Below, in pieces: positions 2,839 to 63,953 of a DNA stretch of 64,000 bases. The translations under genes and the position numbers were made by a program. The notes below the pieces were generated by a model. The model had not been told where the DNA came from, made no database searches, and worked only from the letters and a program-made list of their open reading frames with translations. Source of the DNA: an uncultured virus (IMG/VR IMGVR_UViG_3300026078_000030). Its lineage: Duplodnaviria > Heunggongvirae > Uroviricota > Caudoviricetes. The DNA lies in the IMG/VR virus record IMGVR_UViG_3300026078_000030. One strand, given 5' to 3'. The first letter of the stretch is position 1. The number at the start of each line of letters is the position of its first letter.

Positions 2839-3438
2839 TCATGGGGTGGCTCCGATCCTCTTGAAAGACACGACCCAGACCCACGGGTTTGATTCCCATG
2901 AATGCCCACGACGGGCGTTCAACTTGTCCCATAGGCTCCTGAACCATTCGAGGCGAGACTTATCGCCATCCAGTCTGTTCGTTGGCTCCCAGGGCGTGCC
3001 TTCGAGGTCCATGTCGCCCATCGTCATATCCTGCAATCGCTCCGCACGAATCTCTGTGACTTCCAGGTCGATGCGGCTGGCCGATCGCGGCATGTGAATC
3101 GAGGGTTTCCAGAAACCGGGTTCGACAAACGGCTCTCCGTCGGCGCGATATACAAAATGTGCGATCGAATGCGGCGCGTTGGCATGGCCATACCCGAACG
3201 TCTCGCGGACCCATAGGTGGTCGCCAGCTTCTCCGTATGGGCATCTGGTCGCGTATGAATTGCGTGACGTGACTCGTTCCCAGTTTGCGCCGCCGATGTT
3301 GACTACCTTGACTATTCCTGAATGTGCGAGACAGCTTCGCGGCTCGATAACACGCCTCGTCATCGTCTTGCGCCCGCCCAGAATCGCTCTGACCATCGGT
3401 CCCGAAAACAAAATCGGTCGCTCCCTTACGGCTGTCAT
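2839..3438 (-). CDS. ASCH/PUA-like phage protein
   Basis: RPILFSGPMVRAILGGRKTMTRR...WKPSIHMPR...NPWVWVVSF. Confidence 0.8.
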   Translation of the reverse strand: MTAVRERPILFSGPMVRAILGGRKTMTRRVIEPRSCLAHSGIVKVVNIGGANWERVTSRNSYATRCPYGEAGDHLWVRETFGYGHANAPHSIAHFVYRADGEPFVEPGFWKPSIHMPRSASRIDLEVTEIRAERLQDMTMGDMDLEGTPWEPTNRLDGDKSRLEWFRSLWDKLNARRGHSWESNPWVWVVSFKRIGATP

Positions 3439-3502
3439 GCTCACATCCCCTCCCCGTGCTGCGGGCAATGCCCGAGATAGTCCGCTGCTGTCGTGCTCCC
3501 CA

Positions 3503-4822
3503 TCACTCCGCTCTCCTGGTGCTGTCCGCGAACAGATCCGCCAGCGATTCTTTGACGACCCGATTCGCCAGCCATTTTCCAACGACAAGATTCACCGCAT
3601 TGCCGAGCATTCGATACCGCGGGGAGTCTGCGATTTCCTTGCCTGCGTCATCCCATCGCGTCCAGTCGTCAGGGAATCCCTGGAGTCGTTCGCACTCTCG
3701 CGGCGTCAATCTGCGGACCCCGGAACGTGTCGCAACGTGCGGCTTGCTGTCGGCGTGCGTGCCGCCCTCTGCGCTGGTCAGCGCTCCGGTGATTTCATCT
3801 GGACCGCCGCGACCGTTGCGACCGTTGCGGGCGAATCGGGTTTGGAAGGTGAAGGGGACGCCGCTTTGAACGTCGGAATGTCCGGATCGAAGCGTTCCCA
3901 TTGGACCGACGTTTGAGCCTTGGCATTGGAATACAATCGGTGCTCCTCGAGAACGGTCGTCACTGCCAGTAATTGGACGCGATAAATCAGATTGTTCAAA
4001 TGTCATGTTGGCGTAATCGCTGGCATTGAACGCCACGGCAGGCGGATGCGCCCCGCTCGCCAGAGGATGACACGCATCTCCGGGCTTCGGTGCCGAATAA
4101 TTTCCGGGCGATGTGATTTGCGTTGTGTCAAACACGATATGCTCGCCTGGTTCCGTCCTGAATCCGCCTGTATTGCCGCCGCTGTTTAATGTGCCAGCGA
4201 TGAAAGTCTCTGAATCAAAATCGTACCGCTCATTCGCATTACACGCTGTCGCCAATTCTATTGGCCCGGTTGTGTTGCCCTCCCCCATAGGCTGCGCTGC
4301 TGCCGTTTTCAGTGCTGCTTCCAATGCTTTTGGCAACTCCCGCCCGCGCTTCTCCGCTCTTCTCAAGATCCCACGGCACGCTGCCGGACTCAAAAAGTAT
4401 TCGTATGGCACGTTTCCAGTCTCCAAGACATCCGACAATGAACACGCGACGGCGCCGCTGCGGGACTCCGAAGTGCTGAGCGTCAAGAATCCGGTAGCTG
4501 TACCCATACCCGCATTTTGCCAGCCCGTCCAAGACGATGGATAAGTCACTTGTTTCTTCCACGACCAATTCCCGTCCTCGTCCTGGACTGATTCCCAGCG
4601 AACTTGGCGAGTCGCCGGACCAACTGGACAGAAGGCCGGGCACGTTTTCGATAAGAACAAGTTCAGGCTTGACGAGAGCGATAATCCGACGAAAGGTGAA
4701 CCAGAGTCCGCTTCGGCTTCCAGCCAGTCCAGCACGCTTTCCAGCCACAGATAAGTCTTGGCAGGGGAAGCCTCCGCAGATAGCGAACGGTCGAACAAAC
4801 TTCCTTGAAACTCTGTCGGCAT
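3503..4822 (-). CDS. C5 cytosine methyltransferase, overlapping second polypeptide carrying the TRD and C-terminal motifs
   Basis: SLSDVLE...YFLSPAACRGILRRAEKRG; RRLTPRECERLQGFPD; YRMLGNAV. Confidence 0.8.
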   Translation of the reverse strand: MPTEFQGSLFDRSLSAEASPAKTYLWLESVLDWLEAEADSGSPFVGLSLSSSLNLFLSKTCPAFCPVGPATRQVRWESVQDEDGNWSWKKQVTYPSSWTGWQNAGMGTATGFLTLSTSESRSGAVACSLSDVLETGNVPYEYFLSPAACRGILRRAEKRGRELPKALEAALKTAAAQPMGEGNTTGPIELATACNANERYDFDSETFIAGTLNSGGNTGGFRTEPGEHIVFDTTQITSPGNYSAPKPGDACHPLASGAHPPAVAFNASDYANMTFEQSDLSRPITGSDDRSRGAPIVFQCQGSNVGPMGTLRSGHSDVQSGVPFTFQTRFARNGRNGRGGPDEITGALTSAEGGTHADSKPHVATRSGVRRLTPRECERLQGFPDDWTRWDDAGKEIADSPRYRMLGNAVNLVVGKWLANRVVKESLADLFADSTRRAE

Positions 4823-15332: not shown

Positions 15333-15599
15333 TCAGATCAATTCACCTATCGAATGGCGGATAGCTGCCGTTCGGGTGGTCGCCGATTGCGTTTGGATCT
15401 CCGCAGACTGGACATTCTTCTCGCCAAGACATGATTTGGCTTCCCCTTCCTTGCGCGCCGTCAACTCGGCACGCCTGATCTCGACGTCGCCGGGCGCCGA
15501 GATGCCAAGTTGCACGCGGTTGCCTTTGATCGCGAGCACGCGGACCTCGATGTTGTCGATCACGATTGACTCATTCCGTTTTCTGCTGAGTACGAGCAC
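15333..15599 (-). CDS. csrA: Carbon storage regulator CsrA homolog
   Basis: [14 protein letters not shown]...[18 protein letters not shown]. Confidence 0.88.
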
Positions 15600-16961: not shown

Positions 16962-17309
16962 TTACTCGCCCATCGGCAGTGACGGCTGGTCGATGTCTGC
17001 CGGGTTATCGACATTAAAGAACAGCCCCTTCTTCTTGGCGTCGACGCCGAGCTTGTAGGTCGCGCTGGCGTGGTCAGGCACTTTTGAGCGGGCCTTTAGC
17101 GTCATGTTAACGGCATCGCATTCACGCGAGTCCGGGTCCAGGATCGGCTCGAATTCGATCTCTAAGACGACCTTGCGGAGCGTCTTGTCGGCGGGACGGT
17201 TCAGGCAGTCCTGCCGTGCGCGATCGACGTGGTATTGAAAGACGCCCTCGACGCGCGGGTCGATGTCCTTAATGGTGTCGAGCCTCAGTGTTTCCGTGAC
17301 GACTGGCAT
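16962..17309 (-). CDS. YfdP-like partner protein
   Basis: DCLNRPADKTLRKVVLEIEFEP. Confidence 0.4.
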   Translation of the reverse strand: MPVVTETLRLDTIKDIDPRVEGVFQYHVDRARQDCLNRPADKTLRKVVLEIEFEPILDPDSRECDAVNMTLKARSKVPDHASATYKLGVDAKKKGLFFNVDNPADIDQPSLPMGE

Positions 17310-17505: not shown

Positions 17506-18639
17506 TCATTCGGCCTCCACGAGCTTGCCGTTCTCGATCCGATACCATGTATCTGCTTCAATGCCGTCTTCTCCGACGTAGCCAGTGACAACGCGGTTTC
17601 GTGCGCCATCATTCCAGCAGAGAGCGAAGCATCCGTTGTCTCCAGCTTTAGCTCGGCCACCAATCCCGGCCACCATCGCGACTGTGTCTTTGCCTTCCGC
17701 ACCTGCCGTGCTGGAGTTGCCGGCCGATGCCGCCCTGCTGGAGTCGCCCGACGATGCCGCCCTGCTGGAGTTGCCGGCCGATGCCGCCGTGCTGGAGTTG
17801 CCGGCCGATGCCGCCCTGCTGGAGTAGCCGGCCGATGCCGCCGTGCTGGAGTGGCCGGCCGATGCCGCCCTGCTGGAGTCGCCCGACGATGCCGCCGTGC
17901 TGGAGTGGCCGGCCGATGCCGCCCTGCTGGAGTCGCCCGACGATGCCGCCGTGCTGGAGTGGCCGGCCGATGCCGCCGTGCTGGAGTGGCCGGCCGATGC
18001 CGCCCTGCTGGAGTCGCCCGACGATGCCGCCGTGCTGGAGTTGCCGGCCGATGCCGCCGTGCTGGAGTTGCCGGCCGATGCCGCCCTGCTGGAGTTGCCG
18101 GCCGATGCCGCCCTGCTGGAGTAGCCGGCCGATGCCGCCCTGCTGGAGTGGCCGGCCGATGCCGCCCTGCTGGAGTGGCCGGCCGATGCCGCCGTGCTGG
18201 AGTTGCCTTCGGAAACCTGTGCTTTTGCATCAGCAGCCACGTCCGCAATCACCATCTTCATGAAACTTGCGAGCGGTATTTCTTCAAGGATGCGAATCGT
18301 CTGTGCTGCGTGCTTGCTGTCGTCGCTATGCGGAACAACGAGTCCCGATAACTCGACCAGCGCGAAACGCGCAAATGCCGGCCCATAATACGACCAAATG
18401 TCGGACGGTCGAGTGCAGGCGTGGAAACCCGATTGACAGGGGATCACTTCTCCGTCGTGTGTGTATGTTCTGCCGATTTCAAACTGGAATCCAAGGCAGC
18501 GAAAGTGCTCGTCGAAGCCCTTATAGGCAGTGATGACTTTGGGCGGTTCTGGCACGGCAGCCGTCACAGGCCTACTCTCTGGTTTCTTGCGGTCGGCGGG
18601 CTTGCGTTTCTTGGGCTTCGGTTTCGTCTTAGCGGTCAT
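17506..18639 (-). CDS. Phage protein with 9-aa repeat solenoid (DUF7666-like N-terminus)
   Basis: AYKGFD...CLGFQFEIG...CQSGFHAC; 18 repeats; GIEADTWY. Confidence 0.8.
   Translation of the reverse strand: MTAKTKPKPKKRKPADRKKPESRPVTAAVPEPPKVITAYKGFDEHFRCLGFQFEIGRTYTHDGEVIPCQSGFHACTRPSDIWSYYGPAFARFALVELSGLVVPHSDDSKHAAQTIRILEEIPLASFMKMVIADVAADAKAQVSEGNSSTAASAGHSSRAASAGHSSRAASAGYSSRAASAGNSSRAASAGNSSTAASAGNSSTAASSGDSSRAASAGHSSTAASAGHSSTAASSGDSSRAASAGHSSTAASSGDSSRAASAGHSSTAASAGYSSRAASAGNSSTAASAGNSSRAASSGDSSRAASAGNSSTAGAEGKDTVAMVAGIGGRAKAGDNGCFALCWNDGARNRVVTGYVGEDGIEADTWYRIENGKLVEAE
17705..18207. repeat. 18+ x 27-bp in-frame tandem repeat
   Basis: [NHYD]SS[RT]AAS[AS]G units. Confidence 0.95.
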
Positions 18640-18973
18640 CGTGTCCCCCTTCCGTGGCTTTCGCGATTGCGGCACGGACGAGCAGGAACAACGAGTCCCG
18701 AGGAATCCCGTTCTCGCCGATATGGTCGCCGCTCAAGACGGCTTGGCACGCTTGCAGAAGGTCCGGTGCGGCGGCGATCAGCTTGGCATTGGCCAGCAAT
18801 TCCGCTTCCTTCCCGGTTCTTGCATCCGGCGCATGCTGCCCATCGACATAAACGCAGGCGTATCCGACATCGCGTCCGCACGACCCCGGAAATGGACCAA
18901 TCTTGTGGCAGTGACCGACCTGCGTCTTGACCGTTTCCAGAGTCCACGGCCCAGGCGTGTGCTTCGTGTTCAT
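18629..18973 (-). CDS. Hypothetical protein, paralog of 14864-15220
   Basis: HTPGPW...ANAKLIAAAPDLL. Confidence 0.75.
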   Translation of the reverse strand: MNTKHTPGPWTLETVKTQVGHCHKIGPFPGSCGRDVGYACVYVDGQHAPDARTGKEAELLANAKLIAAAPDLLQACQAVLSGDHIGENGIPRDSLFLLVRAAIAKATEGGHDDR

Positions 18974-19163
18974 GGCTCACCCCAATCTCGAAAATGGCAA
19001 TCAACCCCGCAGCGAATTCCACCGCAGCGGGTACGCGCGCATCCCTGCCGTCCGGCGCCTCCGCGCCAGTCCTGACAACACTCGTTGATGCCCCTGTCCG
19101 TCCTGACATGAAAGAATCGCCTCCGGTGCCATGGCGCATCGTCGCGCCATGTTTGCCACAGTC

Positions 19164-19979
19164 CTAAACTTCTGTCGTGCTGCACGCTTCGACGCCGATA
19201 GCCTTCGCTATCTCGCGCACTTCCGTCAATCGAATCATGCGGTCGAGTAATTTGACTGCCGAATCTTGCAGCCGAGATATAGACGGATTCAATGCATCCC
19301 GTGCGGCAGCCCCTGCGGCAGCCCCTGCGGCAGCCCCTGCGGCAGCCCCTGCGGCATCCCGTGCGGCAGCCCATGCGGCAGCCCATGCGGCATCCCGTGC
19401 GGCATCCCCTGCGGCAGCCCATGCGGAATCCCGTGCGACATCCCGTGCGGCAGCCCGTGCGGCAGCCCCTGCGGCATCCCGTGCGGCATCCCATGCGGCA
19501 TCCCGTGCGACAGCCCATGCGGCAGCCCATGCGGCAGCCCATGCGGCATCCCGTGCGGCATCCCGTGCGGCACTTATAACCGGAACAGTCACGTCGAAGT
19601 TCGATTCATTGATCTCCGGCAATCCCCGGAGAATCGTCGCGTGCTGCTTCAGCGCCGGAGACAACGAAAGAAATTCGGCGGCACACTCTCGCACGAGCCA
19701 ATCGAATGCCATCCACGACCGCTGCAATTCGATTTCGGCACTCGCCCGCGTGCCTGGCAGTCGATAGACAAATTGCTGCAACAGTCGATCGCGGTCCTTG
19801 TCCGTCGGCAGCGCGTCATTCCACGATCGGCAGAATGCGCCGATTACCGGGCAAATGCATGGTGCAGAATCGCTGAACGCGGACCCCGAAATCATGGCCG
19901 CCGCTTCCATCACACACGTCCCGTCATCTGGCGATCTATGGGAACCACCAGACAGTCGAAATGTCCTCAGCTCGTCCAT
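19164..19979 (-). CDS. Phage protein with Ala-rich 4-aa repeats
   Basis: GSH...CVMEAAA...FSD..PCICPVI; AARDAAWA repeats. Confidence 0.75.
   Translation of the reverse strand: MDELRTFRLSGGSHRSPDDGTCVMEAAAMISGSAFSDSAPCICPVIGAFCRSWNDALPTDKDRDRLLQQFVYRLPGTRASAEIELQRSWMAFDWLVRECAAEFLSLSPALKQHATILRGLPEINESNFDVTVPVISAARDAARDAAWAAAWAAAWAVARDAAWDAARDAAGAAARAAARDVARDSAWAAAGDAARDAAWAAAWAAARDAAGAAAGAAAGAAAGAAARDALNPSISRLQDSAVKLLDRMIRLTEVREIAKAIGVEACSTTEV
19294..19571. repeat. 12-bp in-frame tandem repeat array
   Basis: gcggca(g/t)ccc(c/a/g)t units. Confidence 0.9.
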
Positions 19980-20175
19980 GCTTTTGCTCCTTGTTGATTT
20001 GCCACAGTCCTGTTGAGTCCCGATCGTCGCCGAGAGCAATCGCAAGTTGCCGACCGGGCCAACAATCGGCAATCGGTCATGCTCTCGGCGACGACGGGGA
20101 CTCTTCGGCTCGCCCCGTATCGCGCCGCACGTTACGGCGCTCGCGGGATAGAGCCACCATCAGCACGTTGCTGAA

Positions 20176-20247
20176 TAGTGCCGGCAGGAATTGCACCTAC
20201 GACCTCCAGGTTATGAGCCTGGCGAGCTACTACTGCTCCACGGCACG
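20176..20247 (-). tRNA. tRNA-Met(CAT), initiator-like; no encoded CCA
   Basis: CGTGCCGTGGAGCAGTAGTAGCTCGCCAGGCTCATAACCTGGAGGTCGTAGGTGCAATTCCTGCCGGCACTA; 1:72 mismatch. Confidence 0.88.
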
Positions 20248-20289
20248 TCAAACGCTTCTCGCGCTGGTCGGGCAGAGGCCCAATAAACA

Positions 20290-20343
20290 GCGAGTCTCAA
20301 ACGCAAAAACCGTCAACCGGGGGTCTAATTCCAATCGACGGTT
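20290..20343 (-). terminator. Leader terminator/attenuator with antisense target boxes
   Basis: 13-bp stem (G-U pairs work only on minus), loop AAUUAGACCC, U-run, then GAGACUCGC. Confidence 0.7.
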
Positions 20344-20346
20344 CGT

Positions 20347-20375
20347 AAGTTACCGTTGCGGTAACAATCTGTCAA
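20347..20375 (-). promoter_or_regulatory. Early promoter with palindromic operator
   Basis: TTGACA-17-TAACTT; GTTACCG-N3-CGGTAAC at 20349-20365. Confidence 0.8.
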
Positions 20376-20376
20376 A

Positions 20377-20586
20377 TCAATTTACCGCACTGCACTCGTT
20401 ATTTCGCAGAACCGTTTCAGCGATTTGACGCAAGTCCTTTTCGGACAAGAACCAATCACGCGCCAACTTTTTTCCGAATTTTCTTGGAGAGCGGTGTCCG
20501 CGGCAAATTTGGCGTACTCGCCCCTGCGTAATTCCGAGTCGTTCTGCTGCTTCTGTTGTGGAAATCATGGCGTTTTTCGCTTTCAT
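20377..20586 (-). CDS. Excisionase/Cox-like HTH regulator
   Basis: ISTTEAAERLGITQGRVRQIC...RDWFLSEKDL. Confidence 0.75.
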   Translation of the reverse strand: MKAKNAMISTTEAAERLGITQGRVRQICRGHRSPRKFGKKLARDWFLSEKDLRQIAETVLRNNECSAVN

Positions 20587-20598
20587 GGGTTGCCTTTC

Positions 20599-20626
20599 AT
20601 GTTATCGGTTCGGTAACTTAATGCAA
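20599..20626 (-). promoter_or_regulatory. Promoter of the HTH gene with a second operator copy
   Basis: TTGCAT-16-TAACAT; GTTATCG-N3-CGGTAAC at 20601-20617. Confidence 0.7.
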
Positions 20627-20630
20627 TACT

Positions 20631-20698
20631 AAAAAGCTCGCCCTTGAGGTTAGACCCGGCAGAGACTCGCGTAAGCGATGCCAGCAACAAGGGCGAGC
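20631..20698 (-). ncRNA. Candidate C4/CI-like antisense regulatory RNA
   Basis: 11-bp closing stem, inner stems, unpaired GUCUC and GGGUCUAACCU complementary to boxes at 20290-20328 and 28034-28109; U5 tail. Confidence 0.65.
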
Positions 20699-20701
20699 GG
20701 C

Positions 20702-20959
20702 TCAACTGCTAAGTGATCGAATTGCTTCCTTGACGATTCCGACAGCGAAATTTCCAACGAACCAGCCGGCGGGGGCCGAGATGATGCCAGCGACGAACAT
20801 TCCGAGCTTCGTCGGCCAGTCTTCCCGATGGGACTTGTTAATGGCGCATTCGAGGAGCGCCAGCGTACTCGCTGCGATCAAGACGATTCCGCCGAGAACC
20901 CAAGTCAAGGAAATAACTGCGACGGTCGACCCGAGAGAGAGTTTTGCGACATCCCACAT
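20702..20959 (-). CDS. Small membrane protein (2 TM)
   Basis: Two hydrophobic stretches. Confidence 0.55.
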   Translation of the reverse strand: MWDVAKLSLGSTVAVISLTWVLGGIVLIAASTLALLECAINKSHREDWPTKLGMFVAGIISAPAGWFVGNFAVGIVKEAIRSLSS

Positions 20960-21029
20960 GGCACTTCCTCGCTTGAAGTTGAGATTTATGAAACTCAACT
21001 CCCGAAAACACCACATAATAATTTACTAA

Positions 21030-21042
21030 TGGCGGGGACAGG
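21030..21042 (-). other. Candidate attP core resembling the 3' end of a tRNA-fMet
   Basis: CCTGTCCCCGCCA in AT-rich intergenic DNA about 190 bp upstream of the integrase. Confidence 0.45.
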
Positions 21043-21232
21043 CATTGTCGGCCACTGCAAATAAGATCGCAAGTCTGCGCAGAGTTTGCGGGCGGAATCA
21101 ATAGATGAACATGGGCGCCTGATTGGTTTCAGCTATTGCGAATTGTTACTTCGACGTTGAAATAAACAGGATAGGGAGTGAGGAGCGCGGAGGCGTATTC
21201 ACACGGATGGCTCATTAAAATGGGGAGCCACC

Positions 21233-22165
21233 ATGCACACTGTAAAGACGGTCCTCGATGAAACCCTGCGTAGTCATTTCGACGTTCTCTACCGCCCAAA
21301 AAAGCTGTTCGGCAAGAGCCCTGAAACGGTCCGGCTCTACGGGTACACGTTCCGTTATTTCGCCGATTTTCTCGGGCGCGAGCCGACGCTTGCGGACCTG
21401 ACCGACGAATCGGTTATGGCCCTGATGGAGTGGATTCGCGCGAAGCAACTGAGCCTGCGAACGGCGAACAAGACGCGCGACCAACTCTGCGCCCTCTGGT
21501 CGTTCTTGGCGCGCAAGGGACTGGTCAAGACATACCCAGAGGTGCCGAGCTTTCCTGAGCCTGAGCGGTCCCCGACCGCATGGACGCAATCACAGATCCG
21601 TCTGCTGTGGGAATGCTGCGCAGCGCAAGGCGGCTACGTCGGCGGGATTCCTGCCGGGCTTTACTGGCTGACGCTGCATTCGGTCGCGTGGGATTCTCTC
21701 GAACGGATTGGGGCGGTCAAGCAACTTTTGAAAACTGACCTGCAAATGGACTGGACCTGGCTGCACTTCCGCGCCGAGACGCGCAAAGGGCGCCGGAAGG
21801 ATTTCACCACGCGCATTCACGCGAGCACTACGCTGCTGTTGAATCGCCTATGCGCGTGCCAGCCGGAAGAACGGTTGATTTTCCCCTGGCCGTACCATCC
21901 GAGCTACTTCTGGATCAAGTATCGGACGATGCGCGAGCGGGCCGGGCTGCCGACGGACCGGGAGCACAGCTTTCACTGCATCCGCAAGACCGGGGCCTCG
22001 TTCGCGGAAGCGGCCGGTGCCGATGCGTCAAAGCTCCTGGGGCATTCAAGCCGGGCGGTGACGGAGCGGCACTACATCGACGTCACGGTGGCGCAGCGTC
22101 CGCAGGCGATGGACTTCCTGTTCCGTCCCAACGATTCCGAGCCAGAGCCGCCTCGGGCTGCGTAG
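21233..22165 (+). CDS. int: Tyrosine integrase
   Basis: N-terminal SAM-like domain; RIG, RK, HCIRK, LLGHS, HY catalytic residues. Confidence 0.9.
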   Translation: MHTVKTVLDETLRSHFDVLYRPKKLFGKSPETVRLYGYTFRYFADFLGREPTLADLTDESVMALMEWIRAKQLSLRTANKTRDQLCALWSFLARKGLVKTYPEVPSFPEPERSPTAWTQSQIRLLWECCAAQGGYVGGIPAGLYWLTLHSVAWDSLERIGAVKQLLKTDLQMDWTWLHFRAETRKGRRKDFTTRIHASTTLLLNRLCACQPEERLIFPWPYHPSYFWIKYRTMRERAGLPTDREHSFHCIRKTGASFAEAAGADASKLLGHSSRAVTERHYIDVTVAQRPQAMDFLFRPNDSEPEPPRAA

Positions 22166-22292
22166 GAAAGCGAAACGCAGGCCATTGCTGACCGGCGCTC
22201 TCCCGGCAATCCCCTGCCGGCGGGTGGGGTTAGTCGGTCCATCGCACGGTGCATTCGACCCGCAGTTCGCCACTGCGGCCAGTCGACAGCGA

Positions 22293-23626
22293 TTACTCGT
22301 CGGCGATTCGCAAAATTACCTGCGTGCAATCACCCATGTCGCGAATTGCATCGCACAACTCTTGGGGACTGAGCCCGTCCCCCCGTGCGGTCAGGTCTCG
22401 CACTTCGGCATGTCCGGGATAGCTCGTCAATCCGAACAGATCGACGTCGCAAACGCTGGTTCCCTGCACAGTATTCTCGACTACGAAATCCGCGTCCTTC
22501 GCGATGAAGAGCGACCAATCGGGAGTCCGTTCCTGCTGCGACAGGCCAGCAAACCAACCGATTTCGTCCATCGACTCCGCGAGGAACTCCGTGTCTGGGG
22601 GCTGCAACTCAAATTCATGATCGGCCAGCCATTCCCGCAAAGTTCCTTGAGTTTTCGTTTCCATTATTTTTCTCCTGACCCCGCCGGGTTGCCGGGTTGC
22701 CGGGTTGTGGATGGCGGGAGTGGGTTAGTCGACCAGTTCGTCAACGTACCGCATGGCCTCGCGTGCGGTCCTGAATGTCGGTCGTATTCGCTCGCCGGAA
22801 GAGTGGTATAGGAAATAGACGTGCCACCCGTCTCGCTCGCGAACCACGTCCCAATAGAGGCACATCCAATATCCCTTTCCCGGTTTGTGCCAATGATTCA
22901 TCATGGCCGGCAATCCTCTGGATGTCTGACCAGATGCAATGCCTCGCGTGCCAGCTTTAGGACGTTCCCAAGTTTCTCGGAATCGGTTCCGGGGGCGTCA
23001 AGCCAATACTGGACTTCGTGTTTATGTGCCTGATGGCAGATGTCAGACAGCAGTTGTTCGAGCACTTCTTTTGGCTCGACAGTTTTCTTCGTCGCAGTAG
23101 TCGCCATCTCTCACTCTCCAATCAGTTGTCAGGTGGGGTTGGTGGTTATGTCAATTGGGCCGCGGAGCCTGCCGGGTACAGGGGAGATACCGCTAGTTGC
23201 CGAACGCACCCACAATGTATCTACACTTCGCGGCCATCTCTGCATCTTTCGGGTGGCCGCGGCCAAGCTCCCAGTCCTCGGCGCAGAGAATCCATTGTGA
23301 ATATGTAAACCCGTCGAGGAGCGTGTATCCCATACCGGGAAATTTGGAACCACCTGGATACATTAGACCCCGCAATGATTGCAGCGGCATCCTCGACAGT
23401 TGCTCGATTGTCCTCATGATTCGAGGCACTCGATTTCGTCGGCGGTCATGTCGCTGCCAACCGGCAGCGTGTCAAGGTCGTCCTGCGTCGGGCAGCGCAC
23501 TGGCTCTCCGGCGCGATAAACCATGCTAATCGAGCCGTCTGAGCTGAATCGGATTTCTTCTTCGCGTTGTGCCGGCAGGGCGCGGGCCGCATTGGTCTCT
23601 TTGGCCTTCACGTCGTATTTAGCCAT
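22293..23626 (-). other. Cluster of five small hypothetical genes
   Basis: ORFs 22293-22664, 22725-22913, 22901-23107, 23193-23417, 23414-23626, partly coupled. Confidence 0.6.
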
Positions 23627-24695: not shown

Positions 24696-25049
24696 ATGGG
24701 AATCTGCTGGTACTGCTATTGGGGTTGGCCGAAGGCTGTTGCCGATATCTATCTCGAAGCTCTTGCGGCGCTCAACGGCGACGAAACGCTTCTCAAATTC
24801 GGCCCTGCACACATCGTTTGGTCCGACGAGAATTTCGACGGCGCCCAATGGTGCCTGGACCACTTCGACGAATACCGCCGCGAAGAATACAGCGATGCCG
24901 AACATGAAATAGTTCGCGAGTCTCTGCGAAAGCTGCTGCTTGTGCCGGAAGAACTCCGCGATTGCGTGCCGCATGATTACGACGACGAACACCCGGAGAA
25001 CTTTCCGCCTCCGGCGGGAGTCGAGGTCATTCGCAAGGAATCATTCTGA
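24696..25049 (+). CDS. Hypothetical protein
   Basis: ICWYCYWGW...GPAHIVWSDENF. Confidence 0.7.
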   Translation: MGICWYCYWGWPKAVADIYLEALAALNGDETLLKFGPAHIVWSDENFDGAQWCLDHFDEYRREEYSDAEHEIVRESLRKLLLVPEELRDCVPHDYDDEHPENFPPPAGVEVIRKESF

Positions 25050-60439: not shown

Positions 60440-63400
60440 TTATTGGCTCACGCCGCTCGGATTGTCAACGTTAGTTATTGTCAAAACCGCTCGTTTCGAC
60501 GAACGAACCAGCTTATCGCCGATCTTCACTGGCTCGCCTTTGCGGACGAGAATCTTCGCGGGGCGTTTCTTCCGTGCTGTCCGTGCCTTCTGCGCCATAT
60601 TGACGTTCCTTCCGTGATTATTCACTGGCAGGTTGTCTTTCGAGCCATCCGGGCAGAGTCCGAAAATCGCCAGTCCGAAAGGAGGTATGCTGCCGGAGAA
60701 CCGATTTCATATCCAAGGCCATTTTCTAGATGCCTGCTGGTGAACACTCCAAGGATTCGATCGCCTCTGATCTCGGTTACTCGAAACCGATACGTGTTCC
60801 AAGGAGACGCGATCTCGTCGCCGACACGAACGTCCTCGATAGGTATTAGTTCAGACATGATATTGACGTTCCCTCTGTGCGTCCGTGTCAGTCCGACTTC
60901 GCCTTCGCGTAAACGCAGTACGTTTCGTTTATCACGACATGGCCGCGACTCAATCGAATGCCTGCGCCACGAGAGAGGGTGCGCACAACCCGCGCCATCG
61001 CGCCGCTCCTGCGAATTTCAGCGGCCTTGGCCTTCGCCGCCTCTTTGTCGGTGCCGTGTCCACTCTGGTATTTATAGCCATCGCGTTCGGCTTTTCGCCG
61101 TGCCGTATTCTTAGGTGTTTGCCATGCGTACATTTTCGTCCCCAAAAATCCCCGTCAGTCTCGCCGCGATGATGGACGACGGCTACTTCTTCTTGCGATC
61201 ATCGAGTTGATACAGCGCGTCGAGAACGCAGTGCTTGCACCAATGGCCGTTGTTCCAGGTTTTTCCTATGTCGTTCGATGTGCCGGTCATTACCTCGACC
61301 ATGAGAACTTGGCCGCGTTTCTTTATCTCTGTGCCAAGGCGGGATCTCGACGCCGTGCTTCCAGCACATTGGTTTTTCGGCGTGATTTCTTTTCCGCAGC
61401 CGTCGCAAAAATACTTGGTCATTGCCCGTCCTTTCAGTGCGGCCCTCAGCCGCCGTTAGCCATCTCGGCATGGCCTGCGTCGAGGCGGTCGGCGATGGAA
61501 TTAAATCCGCCGAACCACGCAGACCAAGACTCGATTGGAATGTCTGGACTCGTCAAATCTCTGATTTTCTCCGCACACTCCTGCATCGTCTCCCGCAACG
61601 CCTGGATCTCGCGGTCTTTTTCAACCAGCGAATCGCGGATATTGAAATATCGCTCCGATTGCCAAGTGTGACCACCATTCGGTGATTCCAGTGGGGCTTC
61701 GCATTTCCGGCCCTTGGCTTCTGATGAGAATTGCACGCCGCATGAAACGCAGCGTGATGGCCGTTCCGGTATCGGCTCCTGCTCCGCGACGGCGGGAGGC
61801 TTGGTGGCGCGGAAGTCGTCTCCGAACTCTAACCTCAACGCAGTTTCTGCGGCATCGGCAGTAACGAATAATCGAGGATGACCCAGAGGATGTCCGTTTG
61901 TGCCAATGGCAAGGAAGTATGAAGTTGTGGTATCTTTTCGCACATGCGGAATTCCCGCCTCTTGCTGCACCGGCTGGCACGCGGGGAGCGAAGGGAGATT
62001 GCGGATTGTGTTCGCCGCGTGCCGTAATTCACAGACGATCGCTCTTCTGATGTCGCTATTGCCTGGTCCATCGAAAAGGTCGGCCTCGCGATCGCAGACG
62101 GCAGCGCATCGCTCGCGGTCGTCTACCGCCGGCACCGCCGCCGATTGCAGCCGGGCGATCTCGGCCTTCAGCCTCTCGCATTCCATTCGCAGCTCCTGCT
62201 CGTTCGCGACGCTCGCGGCCTGCTGGGCGGCGTAGTGGGCAGTCTCGGAGGCGAGGCGGTCGCGGTCGGTGCGGAGTTCGCGGATTTCTGACAACAGACT
62301 ACCTGCCTGCTTTGGAATGAATCCAAAACTGAAGCGTAAATACTGCTCTACTTTTTCAAGGTCATTCGTCGACATCGTCGTCTCTCCGGGGTCGTGTTGG
62401 GGGTGGGGGTCAGTCGTCAACTTCTGGCCAGCGGTGACTCATAACTTTCTTCAGGTATTCGCCGGCCTTCTTGTAACCGGGATTCTTAGGCTCCCTGCTG
62501 AATCCATAGCCATCGCAAACACCATTGCGATAGGCCGCTTCGCTGTTCAAGTACGCCATGAATGCGAACGCCAAGAACATTGCCAAAACCTCTAGGCCGT
62601 CAATCATGTTCATCCCCCTTTTTCTCCGGCCCGGTCAGCCGTGGTGACGGGTGGCGGGAGTGTGCCGTCCAAAGCTCGATAGAGTGCGAGGCAGCGACTC
62701 TTTGCGTCCGCATTCACGCAATGCCAATATTCCGGCTGGTCCATTACATCGACCAGCTTTGCTCCCCAGTCGATTGGCAGACTCTCAATTGCGTGGCTAA
62801 TGATCTTTGGCCACACGTCCCGTTGCCGTCGCGGCTGATTTTCAGATGCGCAGCCAGAATGTAGAACGGCCGGCGTAGGTCTTCCTCGCGGTGAAGATGT
62901 TCTTCGTTCGCCCGTCGCACTATTTCGTAGGCGTGGCAGGCTGTCTGGGTGATTAGTTCGTCGTGCATAAAAGACCTTTCGTCATTCGCTGTCTTGCTCG
63001 TCTTCGCCGCCGTCCAGTTCACACGCTGGACATTCAACGTCATCGCCCATGTCGCAGGCGTCGCACTTCGTAGACCCGCAACGCGGGCAGTTTTTCAGGT
63101 AATTTGGCTCAGGGCATCCGCAGGCATTGCACGCCGGGAGCTTCGTCTTTGGCTTCGCTGACGGATGGTCCCGTCGCCCGCGTTTCTCGCCGACAATCGC
63201 ATCGAAATATCCCGCTGTCTGGCTCTTCGGGCTCTTTTTTTTGGACATGAGCGTCTGACTCTTTCTTAATGCTGGTTCTGCGGAATGTTTTGCGGCAAGT
63301 ACTTCCGGCTGTCAAAAACAAACCCGGCAACCTCCAGCGGGTCCGTCAGTCGAACAAACGGCTGCCGGAATTCGCTGTCCTCGGGGCGGTCGCTGCCACG

Positions 63401-63953
63401 GTGCACGATTCCGTGCGAGTCGACGTAATCGCCGGCGATCGGGTCGAGGGGGCGGGTTGACATGAGCGTCCTTTCAAAACTGGTTGACCAAAACTCATTG
63501 CTACTTCATCCCGGCCAGTACCTCGATCGCCTCACGTTCTCGTGACAGAGCATTATCCCGCTCCAGCCGAGCGAGCCAAACGGTGTGTTGCTCTTTGGCG
63601 AGCCTCCTCTGCAAATCAGCAATTTCCGCGTCTTTATCGGCGCCGGCCTCGACGACTTCGAGCATCCGGTCCACCTCGGTTTTGATGTCCCGGAGACCGA
63701 TCCGCAGACAATCGTCGCAAAGATGGCATTCGTCGTTCGGTCCACCGTTCCGGTAGACGCACGCACTCACGATCAGAGAATTGCCAATCGACTCCCATGG
63801 GTAATTCCCCTCGATCAGCGGCACTCTCGCGGTCGGCAGATTAGACCCCCATGCTCTGCGCTGTGGCTCAAGGGGTCCACGTTTCTTGCCGCACGTCGCG
63901 CAATACTGCGACTGATTTTTCCGAACGTCCATCCATTTTTCGTCGACGGGCAT
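60440..63953 (-). other. Array of small early hypothetical genes, several with CxxC pairs
   Basis: Tightly packed minus-strand ORFs. Confidence 0.65.
63266..63463 (-). CDS. 65-aa hypothetical protein (duplicated at window start)
   Basis: Repeat with 1-164; RBS GAAAGGA on both copies. Confidence 0.7.
   Translation of the reverse strand: MSTRPLDPIAGDYVDSHGIVHRGSDRPEDSEFRQPFVRLTDPLEVAGFVFDSRKYLPQNIPQNQH

Follow-up and report, generated by a model that had tools for sequence, protein, structure and literature searches.

Does a structured RNA recognise, by base pairing, the leader of an early phage operon, and if so, does it work as the known immunity RNAs do? The question is raised by the control region of an uncultured tailed phage (Caudoviricetes; IMG/VR record IMGVR_UViG_3300026078_000030), of which a stretch of 64,000 nucleotides (nt), here the window, was analysed. 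The element at issue, R, is a compound hairpin on the minus strand; downstream of it lie a promoter-like site (P1), a gene for a small helix-turn-helix (HTH) protein, a second promoter-like site (P2) and a leader that carries a terminator, a further hairpin (leader hairpin 2) and a tRNA-Met gene ahead of the early genes. An earlier note on this DNA proposed R as a candidate antisense RNA governing the choice between lysis and lysogeny: segments binding three boxes of a split target and controlling termination, after the fashion of the C4 RNA of P1 and P7 or the CI RNA of P4. What we find is narrower. R is a conserved structured RNA element with covarying outer and inner stems, and one segment of it, the core, is the perfect complement of a single box in the leader, the two having changed together between lineages.

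Evidence for the structure came firstly from folding. RNAfold, applied to the minus-strand RNA 20705-20626, predicts a fold of -34 kcal/mol (z -3.3; none of 200 shuffles folded equally well), in which an outer stem of 11 bp encloses an inner hairpin and is followed by UUUUU. The hairpin described in the earlier note is thus present, with changes of detail: the inner stem is 6 bp long (CUGGCA/UGCCGG), which leaves a 5′ bulge of 3 nt, and half of the 9-nt segment taken to be free is paired. Four of the nine core bases are held in the apical stem, and therefore only GUCUC is exposed. A G+C-rich 11-bp stem running directly into UUUUU gives R the make-up of an intrinsic terminator, and the equivalent elements of the related loci L016, L003 and L011 qualify likewise; a simple terminator scan misses R because the enclosed part exceeds the scan's 8-nt loop limit.

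Relatives of the HTH gene are few – five clusters in a set of 5.8 billion proteins – and DNA of 17 candidate loci was available for comparison. Identity to the HTH protein of the window is 96% in L016 (a contig of a metagenome-assembled genome, MAG), 83% in L002, 67% in L003, 77% over part of the protein in L004/L015, and 36% by tblastn or 32% in the alignment in L011/L013. Outside the counts that follow stand L005-L010, which are without R, P2 and terminator; L014, L017 and L018, with no credible open reading frame (ORF); and L012, because its contig ends 24 nt past the HTH gene. The gene order of L012 matches that of L011, and its interval at about 2850-2960 holds a tRNA-like 3′ half (no call by ARAGORN), a small hairpin with a U tail, whose likeness to R was judged by eye, and an operator-bearing HTH promoter.

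The structure of R is maintained across these relatives while its sequence changes. Between the window and L016, which are 90-92% identical through inner R, P1 and the HTH gene, 7 of the 22 outer-stem bases differ and all 11 pairs are kept in both, three of the changes being two-sided and one turning C-G into U-G. The inner stem varies in the same manner, its pairing kept (CUGGCA/UGCCGG in the window, CCCGC/GCGGG in L011, GCGGCG/CGUCGC in L003). At the position of R, both L003 and L011 have an element that is closed by a stem, encloses an inner hairpin and has a U tail; a homologue of the core occupies the 3′ portion of the inner loop. Fold z is -3.2 in L016, -5.7 in L003 and -2.6 in L011. The G-U pairs and U tails are compatible only with the HTH-sense strand. 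L004/L015 have no R hairpin. A covariance model, R1, built from the window and L016, finds L002 at 19.4 bits and reaches only 12.1 bits on L011, among generic terminators; because of this weakness, and because a MAFFT/RNAalifold alignment of five hairpins was poor, the structures of the distant members were compared by hand.

R may not be simply the terminator of whatever precedes it. In the window it closes a co-directional unit, 3 nt past the stop of an ORF for an apparent membrane protein of 104 residues, and in L011 it directly follows a tRNA-Leu gene. In L016 and L003, from which the 104-residue ORF is missing, the divergent integrase gene (int) directly adjoins R and no co-directional gene ends there, which argues that R is more than the terminator of the membrane ORF. 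Between int and R, L003 has a sequence that matches a promoter well and would serve int. The 5′ part of R, CUGGCAU (with an extra C in L016), is also complementary to the start-codon region of a conserved early gene (AUGCCAG, 7 nt, at 17303-17309 on the minus strand of the window; GAUGCCAG, 8 nt, at about 3293-3300 in L016), a match that may be due to chance. We considered and rejected a phage attachment site (attP) or tRNA-derived site inside R, the 10/12 match to the 3′ end of tRNA-Met being at noise level.

A critical issue is whether the complementarity between R and the leader is itself maintained. In all four loci that combine P2, a terminator and a U-tract leader (the window, L002, L011 and L013) core and box are perfect complements: GCGAGUCUC / GAGACUCGC in the window, CGCACGUCUC / GAGACGUGCG in L002, and ACAAGUCUC / GAGACUUGU in L011 and L013. 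The complementary runs are 9, 10, 9 and 9 nt long respectively, and always begin at the first base past the U-tract. GUCUC/GAGAC is invariant; three of the four variable pairs have changed on both sides (G-C to A-U twice, A-U to C-G once) and none is broken. When R of one lineage is set against the leader of another, runs of 5-7 nt are found, as against 9-10 nt for cognate combinations. Of 20000 shufflings of the 30 nt past the U-tract, 43, 36 and 94 reached a run as long as the observed one. The DNA pattern operator-gap-TTTGAGAC has 32 chance matches in IMG/VR, none of them in a relative and none with a cognate core within 600 nt upstream. On the minus strand of the window GAGACTCGC occurs only at 20290-20298 and at 24916-24924, and R has no complementary copy upstream of it. 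The copy at 24916-24924 we take to be a chance occurrence because it lies inside coding-like sequence. Among 6323 other 86-nt segments of the same 64 kb, 131 have a single 9-mer match to R RNA; figures of this order make such matches uncommon and, after a free search, not decisive.

We regard base pairing of core and box as a selected feature. That the core is carried in the loop or bulge of a covarying hairpin, that G-U pairs and U tails fit the sense strand only, that the match is perfect and sharply bounded, and that it is specific to the cognate partner together make pairing between RNAs the most likely form.

The three complementarities of the earlier note were all recovered by script, and comparison favours one of them. 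The 9-nt pairing with the box at 20290-20298 is the one that compensatory changes preserve in three lineages. The 8-nt match, GGGUCUAA with UUAGACCC (20321-20328), exists and falls in the 10-nt loop of the leader terminator; it is missing from the corresponding loops of L002 and L011. The 5-nt match GCUGG/CCAGC (20263-20267) is present too, in the 3′ strand of leader hairpin 2, and is of trivial length. A colinear 9+8 match to R RNA turns up in 12 of the 6323 other 86-nt segments. With the loop box unconserved and the 5-nt box too short for comparison, the split-target design is unsupported; of the covariation that homologous loci were expected to show, the 9-nt core and box display it and the loop box is lost. 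Nor is control of the leader terminator supported: the 9-nt box lies 3′ of the U-tract and, by the standard mechanism, would not yet be transcribed when termination is decided. The suggested kinship with known RNA families fares no better. Scanning the whole window against Rfam (cmscan) at gathering score returned tRNA only, and at E<=10 the interval 20100-20800 gave tRNA and chance-level hits to Plastid-ycf2 and Bacillus-plasmid, with none to C4, c4-2, c4-a1b1 or any other C4-type family. What survives of the proposed immunity RNA is a structured, terminator-ended element upstream of the early region, with one segment complementary to the leader; the C4 family and an RNA-only switch do not. 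The octamer TTAGACCC, found in the terminator loop, is itself over-represented in the window (4 occurrences against 0.55 expected; 0/100 shuffles reach 4), at 20321-20328 (-), 20650-20657 (+), 23363-23370 (+) and 63841-63848 (+); three of these sites share the 10-mer ATTAGACCCC, and two lie within ORFs in different reading frames.

A switch made of RNA alone is not supported, because a gene for a MerR-like HTH protein stands between R and the leader, with the same palindrome in the two promoter-like sites that flank it. A weak PHROG match labels the protein repressor or excisionase; its AlphaFold model (pLDDT 79) is a winged helix, ordered H-H-beta hairpin-H and followed by a C-terminal helix, and the best folds in the PDB are RacA and the MerR-family HiNmlR (TM 0.66-0.69, E>=0.057, none <=0.001). 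On profile and modelled fold taken together it is a MerR-like, excisionase-type winged HTH protein. The palindrome shared by P1 and P2, GTTAYCG-N3-CGGTAAC, forms the putative operators O1 and O2; allowing two or fewer mismatches, GTTACCG-N3-CGGTAAC has 2 sites in 64 kb where 0.05 are expected, a number reached in 0/100 shuffles. The 69-residue protein is likely to bind both palindromes as an operator-binding regulator. P1, position and palindrome included, is kept in L016, L002, L004/L015 and L011; P2 is kept as TTGACA in L016, L002 and L004/L015 and as TTGCAG-17-TAATTT in L011. The early promoter named in the earlier note, TTGACA-17-TAACTT, is there in the sequence (20375-20347, minus strand); a stricter consensus scan lists neither it nor P1, because the second hexamers match at 3/6 positions only, and both promoter assignments therefore come from reading the sequence and from conservation. 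The note's description of a phage without a recognisable peptidase-type CI repressor is borne out: Pfam searches of the 107 ORFs of the minus-strand set and 26 plus-strand ORFs found no S24-peptidase or CI-type repressor.

The leader, too, is strongly structured. Its terminator ends in a bipartite U-tract, UUUUUGCGUUU (20309-20299), and the interval 20344-20248 folds at -40.8 kcal/mol (z -4.8); an equivalent hairpin with U-tract is found in L002, the third match of model R1, and in L011. The positions of these features, and of those around them, are given in Table 1.

Table 1. Features of the R-to-leader region and its neighbours, in window coordinates
Feature	Position	Strand	Description
R element, compound hairpin RNA	20631..20698	-	outer stem 20698-20688/20646-20636, inner hairpin 20684-20656, U tail 20635-20631
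R core GCGAGUCUC	20662..20670	-	GCGA in apical stem, GUCUC in 5-nt bulge; complementary to leader box
GGGUCUAA, R 3′ internal loop	20650..20657	-	partner of loop box; kept in window, L016 and L002
P1, promoter-like site of HTH gene	20599..20626	-	TTGCAT-16-TAACAT, read from sequence
O1 palindrome GTTATCGGTTCGGTAAC	20601..20617	.	inside P1; palindrome search
Winged-HTH gene, 69 aa	20377..20586	-	Pfam HTH_59 27.5 bits (cut-off 27); HTH_3 and HTH_17 weaker
P2, promoter-like site of early operon	20347..20375	-	TTGACA-17-TAACTT, read from sequence
O2 palindrome GTTACCGTTGCGGTAAC	20349..20365	.	inside P2; palindrome search
Leader terminator	20299..20344	-	14-bp stem 20344-20331/20320-20307, 10-nt loop AAUUAGACCC (20330-20321)
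Leader box GAGACUCGC	20290..20298	-	perfect complement of R core; starts at first base past U-tract
Leader hairpin 2	20252..20304	-	3′ half of box, CUCGC, pairs in cis with GCGAG
tRNA-Met (CAT), phage-borne	20176..20247	-	Rfam tRNA 58.7 bits; ARAGORN; inside early leader
104-aa ORF, apparently membrane protein	20702..21016	-	stop codon 3 nt before R hairpin; ORF list
Tyrosine integrase gene	21233..22165	+	divergent from switch region; PHROG phrog_1 integrase E 1.5e-27; Pfam SAM-like N-terminal domains weak

What might such a pairing do? The reading that we favour, tentatively and with confidence somewhat short of even, is of a lineage-specific pairing between RNAs that acts on read-through early transcripts, comparable to C4 of P1/P7 or CI of P4 and standing outside that family. 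R, ending in an intrinsic terminator just upstream of what would be the self-regulated promoter of the MerR-like HTH gene, may be made as the 3′ end of an upstream transcript – that of the membrane ORF in the window, that of the tRNA-Leu gene in L011. Nine to ten bases on the 3′ side of its inner loop (NNNN-GUCUC) would pair with the box (GAGAC-NNNN), so that the R of each phage would match its own leader and not the leaders of other lineages. We infer that R accumulates as an RNA and acts in trans, on early transcripts that have escaped the leader terminator and in competition with leader hairpin 2, which forms in cis; the outcome, in sign, would most likely be negative and immunity-like, layered upon protein control at the two operators.

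A bolder version, which we regard as doubtful, makes R an independent and new class of phage immunity RNA, structurally unrelated to C4 and CI, whose seed lies within a terminator-closed hairpin and whose specificity amounts to a heteroimmunity code. Transcription would enter from outside, through a moron gene in this phage and, in other lineages, through a tRNA gene, and because this outside transcription supplies it, R would be made constitutively in lysogens; four to five variable bases of the seed, together with the leader box, would decide which related phages' early transcripts are silenced.

Several observations weigh against an RNA that regulates by pairing with the leader. A consensus scan lists no promoter on the R strand in any locus. 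Independent lineages with a box number just three, L011 and L013 being near-identical here, and in one of them, L002, R is a degenerate hairpin (z 0.56) that retains the core and the 3′ half. Both L016 and L003 keep R and have no box in their 6-kb loci, nor is there one in the whole 32.8-kb contig of L016; in each, another hairpin and a homologue of the window ORF 17327-16962 come, in that order, after the HTH gene, and each shows signs of decay or mosaicism. Co-folding of R with its leader yields a ddG of 0 in the window, -14.5 in L002 and -0.9 in L011: no net gain in the window, since pairing there has to open both leader hairpin 2 and the apical stem of R. The place of the box 3′ of the U-tract closes the usual route to that terminator. 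Finally, O1 and O2 also vary in parallel between lineages, and since they do, parallel change at two sites may stem from a co-evolving DNA-binding protein.

This last point leads to the rival reading in which the repeat matters as DNA. Core and box can equally be seen as 9-10-bp inverted repeats flanking a segment of about 363 bp that holds P1, the HTH gene, P2 and the terminator, and they might be crossover sites of the kind known from fimS, or sites for a lineage-specific protein. The fimS switch has 9-bp repeats, and its FimB and FimE are tyrosine recombinases; here, similarly, a segment of a few hundred bp that contains promoters is flanked by short repeats, with a gene for a tyrosine recombinase 550 bp away, and either the need for recombination partners to be identical or co-evolution with a protein would give parallel changes, as O1 and O2 in the same loci illustrate. 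We nonetheless think this unlikely. Beyond the 9-10 bp the identity breaks off abruptly, and within each site there is no dyad symmetry; inversion would destroy a hairpin with a covarying outer stem, since the repeat runs into it; L011 has no recombinase within 3 kb upstream; and whereas the operators are imperfect copies of each other, core and box match perfectly in every lineage. All five assemblies with both repeats (the window, G001/L001, L002, L011 and L013) show one orientation and no inverted form was seen; the contigs of four runs contain no inversion joints, a result uninformative about inversion because rare variants are lost from contigs and three of the four runs lack coverage of the leader (nothing in X2-X4 spans 20271-20331, while over the hairpin the contigs of X2 and X3 show 0 differences). 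A related candidate, a cassette resembling a miniature inverted-repeat transposable element with terminal inverted repeats, was rejected for want of a target-site duplication.

Two further explanations keep the hairpin or the pairing and dispense with regulation in trans. R might be a plain terminator or insulator that shields the HTH promoter and serves a tRNA or moron gene, the complementarity being a functionless remnant of an inverted duplication. Its G+C-rich stem and U tail, its place 3 nt past the stop of an ORF (window) or immediately behind tRNA-Leu (L011), and its occurrence without a box in L016 and L003 all fit, and a duplication is suggested because blocks of the R-P1 region, namely GCGAGTCTC, CCGG(G)GGTCTAA and TAAGTTACCG, recur in unchanged order on the plus strand of the window's leader. 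A remnant, however, would decay, and three lineages with HTH identity down to 32% retain perfect 9-10-nt matches with two-sided changes, in non-coding DNA that around the matches cannot be aligned between lineages; the inner hairpin and its loop motif are kept beyond what a terminator needs, and L016 and L003 offer no co-directional gene that R could terminate. We consider this explanation improbable. We give slightly less credence still to pairing in cis, in which a transcript running through both R and the leader terminator would fold back over about 370 nt and so affect processing, mRNA stability or tRNA maturation. The partners do lie on one strand and in one direction of transcription, the leader is highly structured and its hairpin 2 ends 4 nt before tRNA-Met, and there is an analogy in IsrK, whose read-through and short isoforms interact (PMC4825925). 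Such folding would require read-through of two strong terminator-like hairpins, transcripts from P1 and P2 do not contain R, and L002 has no tRNA behind its leader.

The wider setting is that of a temperate phage genome of about 63 kb. Virion genes recognised by Pfam (terminase, portal, ClpP-type protease, capsid, tape-measure and others) occupy the minus strand from about 49.6 to 29 kb, and early-type genes, among them those for a PD-(D/E)XK nuclease, two DNA methylases, RusA and a CsrA homologue, run from 20 kb to 1 kb. The nearest record, a virus of 63,113 bp rated complete, is identical across the region of interest, and the sequence was found in rhizosphere and soil metagenomes, in a list of 13 runs that are all of DNA and include none of RNA. 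Nucleotides 1-124 of the window are identical to 63300-63423, beyond which the copies diverge (1-185 compared with 63300-63485); the pattern suggests a pair of small paralogous ORFs, or strain variants, rather than the overlap that closes a circular contig. The sole Pfam match of the 104-residue ORF is a sub-threshold 'Sensor'. Between it and int lie a near-palindrome, GCAAGTCTGCGCAGAGTTTGC, and an operator-like half-site, ATTGTTAC (21069-21089 and 21142-21149), possibly features of int control or of an attachment site.

The integrase of the window is 36% identical to that of L016 and 35% identical to that of L003. Because identity of L016 is 36% in Int and 96% in the adjacent HTH protein, a recombination breakpoint is placed at the 5′ edge of R. 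L016 Int (2156-2827, -) is without the N-terminal ~90 residues, aligning from residue 91 of the window protein; L003 Int (1727-2512, -) stops early, and in that locus the HTH gene and the next gene form one open frame (2869-3630, +).

Early genes follow tRNA-Met, which starts 4 nt past leader hairpin 2 and 42 nt past the box, and whose 1:72 pair is a C-U mismatch and whose T-loop, UGCAAUU, is unusual. Between it and the start of ORF 20072-19164 is a 24-nt inverted repeat (20015-20038 / 20080-20103, 92% complementary, 41 nt between the arms). ORFs 17506-18675 and 19164-20072 (both minus) contain long low-complexity repeats of the AASAGxSS and AARDAAW types; the former carries DUF7666, and the DNA of the latter is 79% like gp36 of Burkholderia phage Bcep176. 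L016 is without both of these ORFs, tRNA-Met and the leader. A CsrA homologue is present in the early operon of every lineage examined (15336-15599, minus, in the window; 4570-4749 in L016; 4835-5107 in L003) and in L004/L015 is the first gene behind P2.

Attempts to enlarge the set of relatives brought little. A further HTH scan added L015 alone, and scans of viral contigs with Int, a gpE1 alignment and two HTH alignments gave nothing new; a DNA pattern for the R core found no relatives, and one for P2 and its operator gave 5 matches, of which 1 was the known L015 contig and 4 were unrelated. Blastn of 19100-22200 against 50,697 phage records matched only a repeat ORF and tRNA-Met, and 401 genomes of the phylum of L016's MAG yielded a single, unrelated HTH context (L057).

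To our knowledge the known examples of RNA-based immunity come mainly from a small number of enterobacterial elements (P1/P7, P4, N15-type). If the reading that we favour is correct, soil phages of unknown host would provide a structurally unrelated example: a small module of about 450 bp with a readable specificity code of four to five covarying bases, in which RNA control can coexist with a protein repressor and twin operators. If the DNA-level rival should instead prove true, the control region of a phage would hold an invertible or looped switch, which would likewise be unusual.

C4 is defined by two unpaired segments complementary to two sites that mask the ribosome-binding site of icd, upstream of the antirepressor gene, and it is cut, with processing by RNase P, from the very operon transcript that it controls. 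Citron and Schuster are said to have reported in 1990 that RNA and target of P1 and P7 differ between the phages in a matched way. R would resemble C4 (P1/P7, Rfam RF01695, and the related c4 motifs) as a structured small RNA of the sense strand, situated in the immunity or early region, with an exposed segment that pairs further downstream and with RNA and target differing in a matched way between related phages. Unlike C4, with its two segments a′ and b′, it has one supported segment; its target abuts the U-tract of a terminator and overlaps no ribosome-binding site; no Icd or Ant family was recognised among the early genes by Pfam or PHROG; and R, which ends in a terminator of its own, precedes the promoters of its would-be target transcripts. 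The regulation by C4 of ant expression, as an antisense RNA, is covered in PMC8201110.

In P4, as described in PMC4825925, seqB has two pairing partners within one leader, seqA on its upstream side and seqC on its downstream side, an arrangement linked to termination. The likeness to R lies in an RNA factor that pairs with complementary sequence in the leader of the replication or early operon (PMC4825925). In P4 the two targets lie on either side of the RNA gene, within a single leader transcript, whereas here there is a single supported target, downstream; R, unlike P4 CI, lies outside the P1 and P2 transcripts, and no similarity of sequence or model connects the two. IsrK of Gifsy-1 offers a further parallel as a terminator-ended short RNA with a binding site on the read-through transcript (PMC4825925); IsrK, however, activates translation of a downstream ORF and is the structural homologue of P4 SeqA, and no similarity of R to it was found. 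Because every testable feature of membership failed, the resemblance of R to the P1/P7 and P4 systems is functional only: it is one of design, the design of the sense-encoded immunity RNAs as these are set out in PMC8201110, PMC4825925 and PMC2864571.

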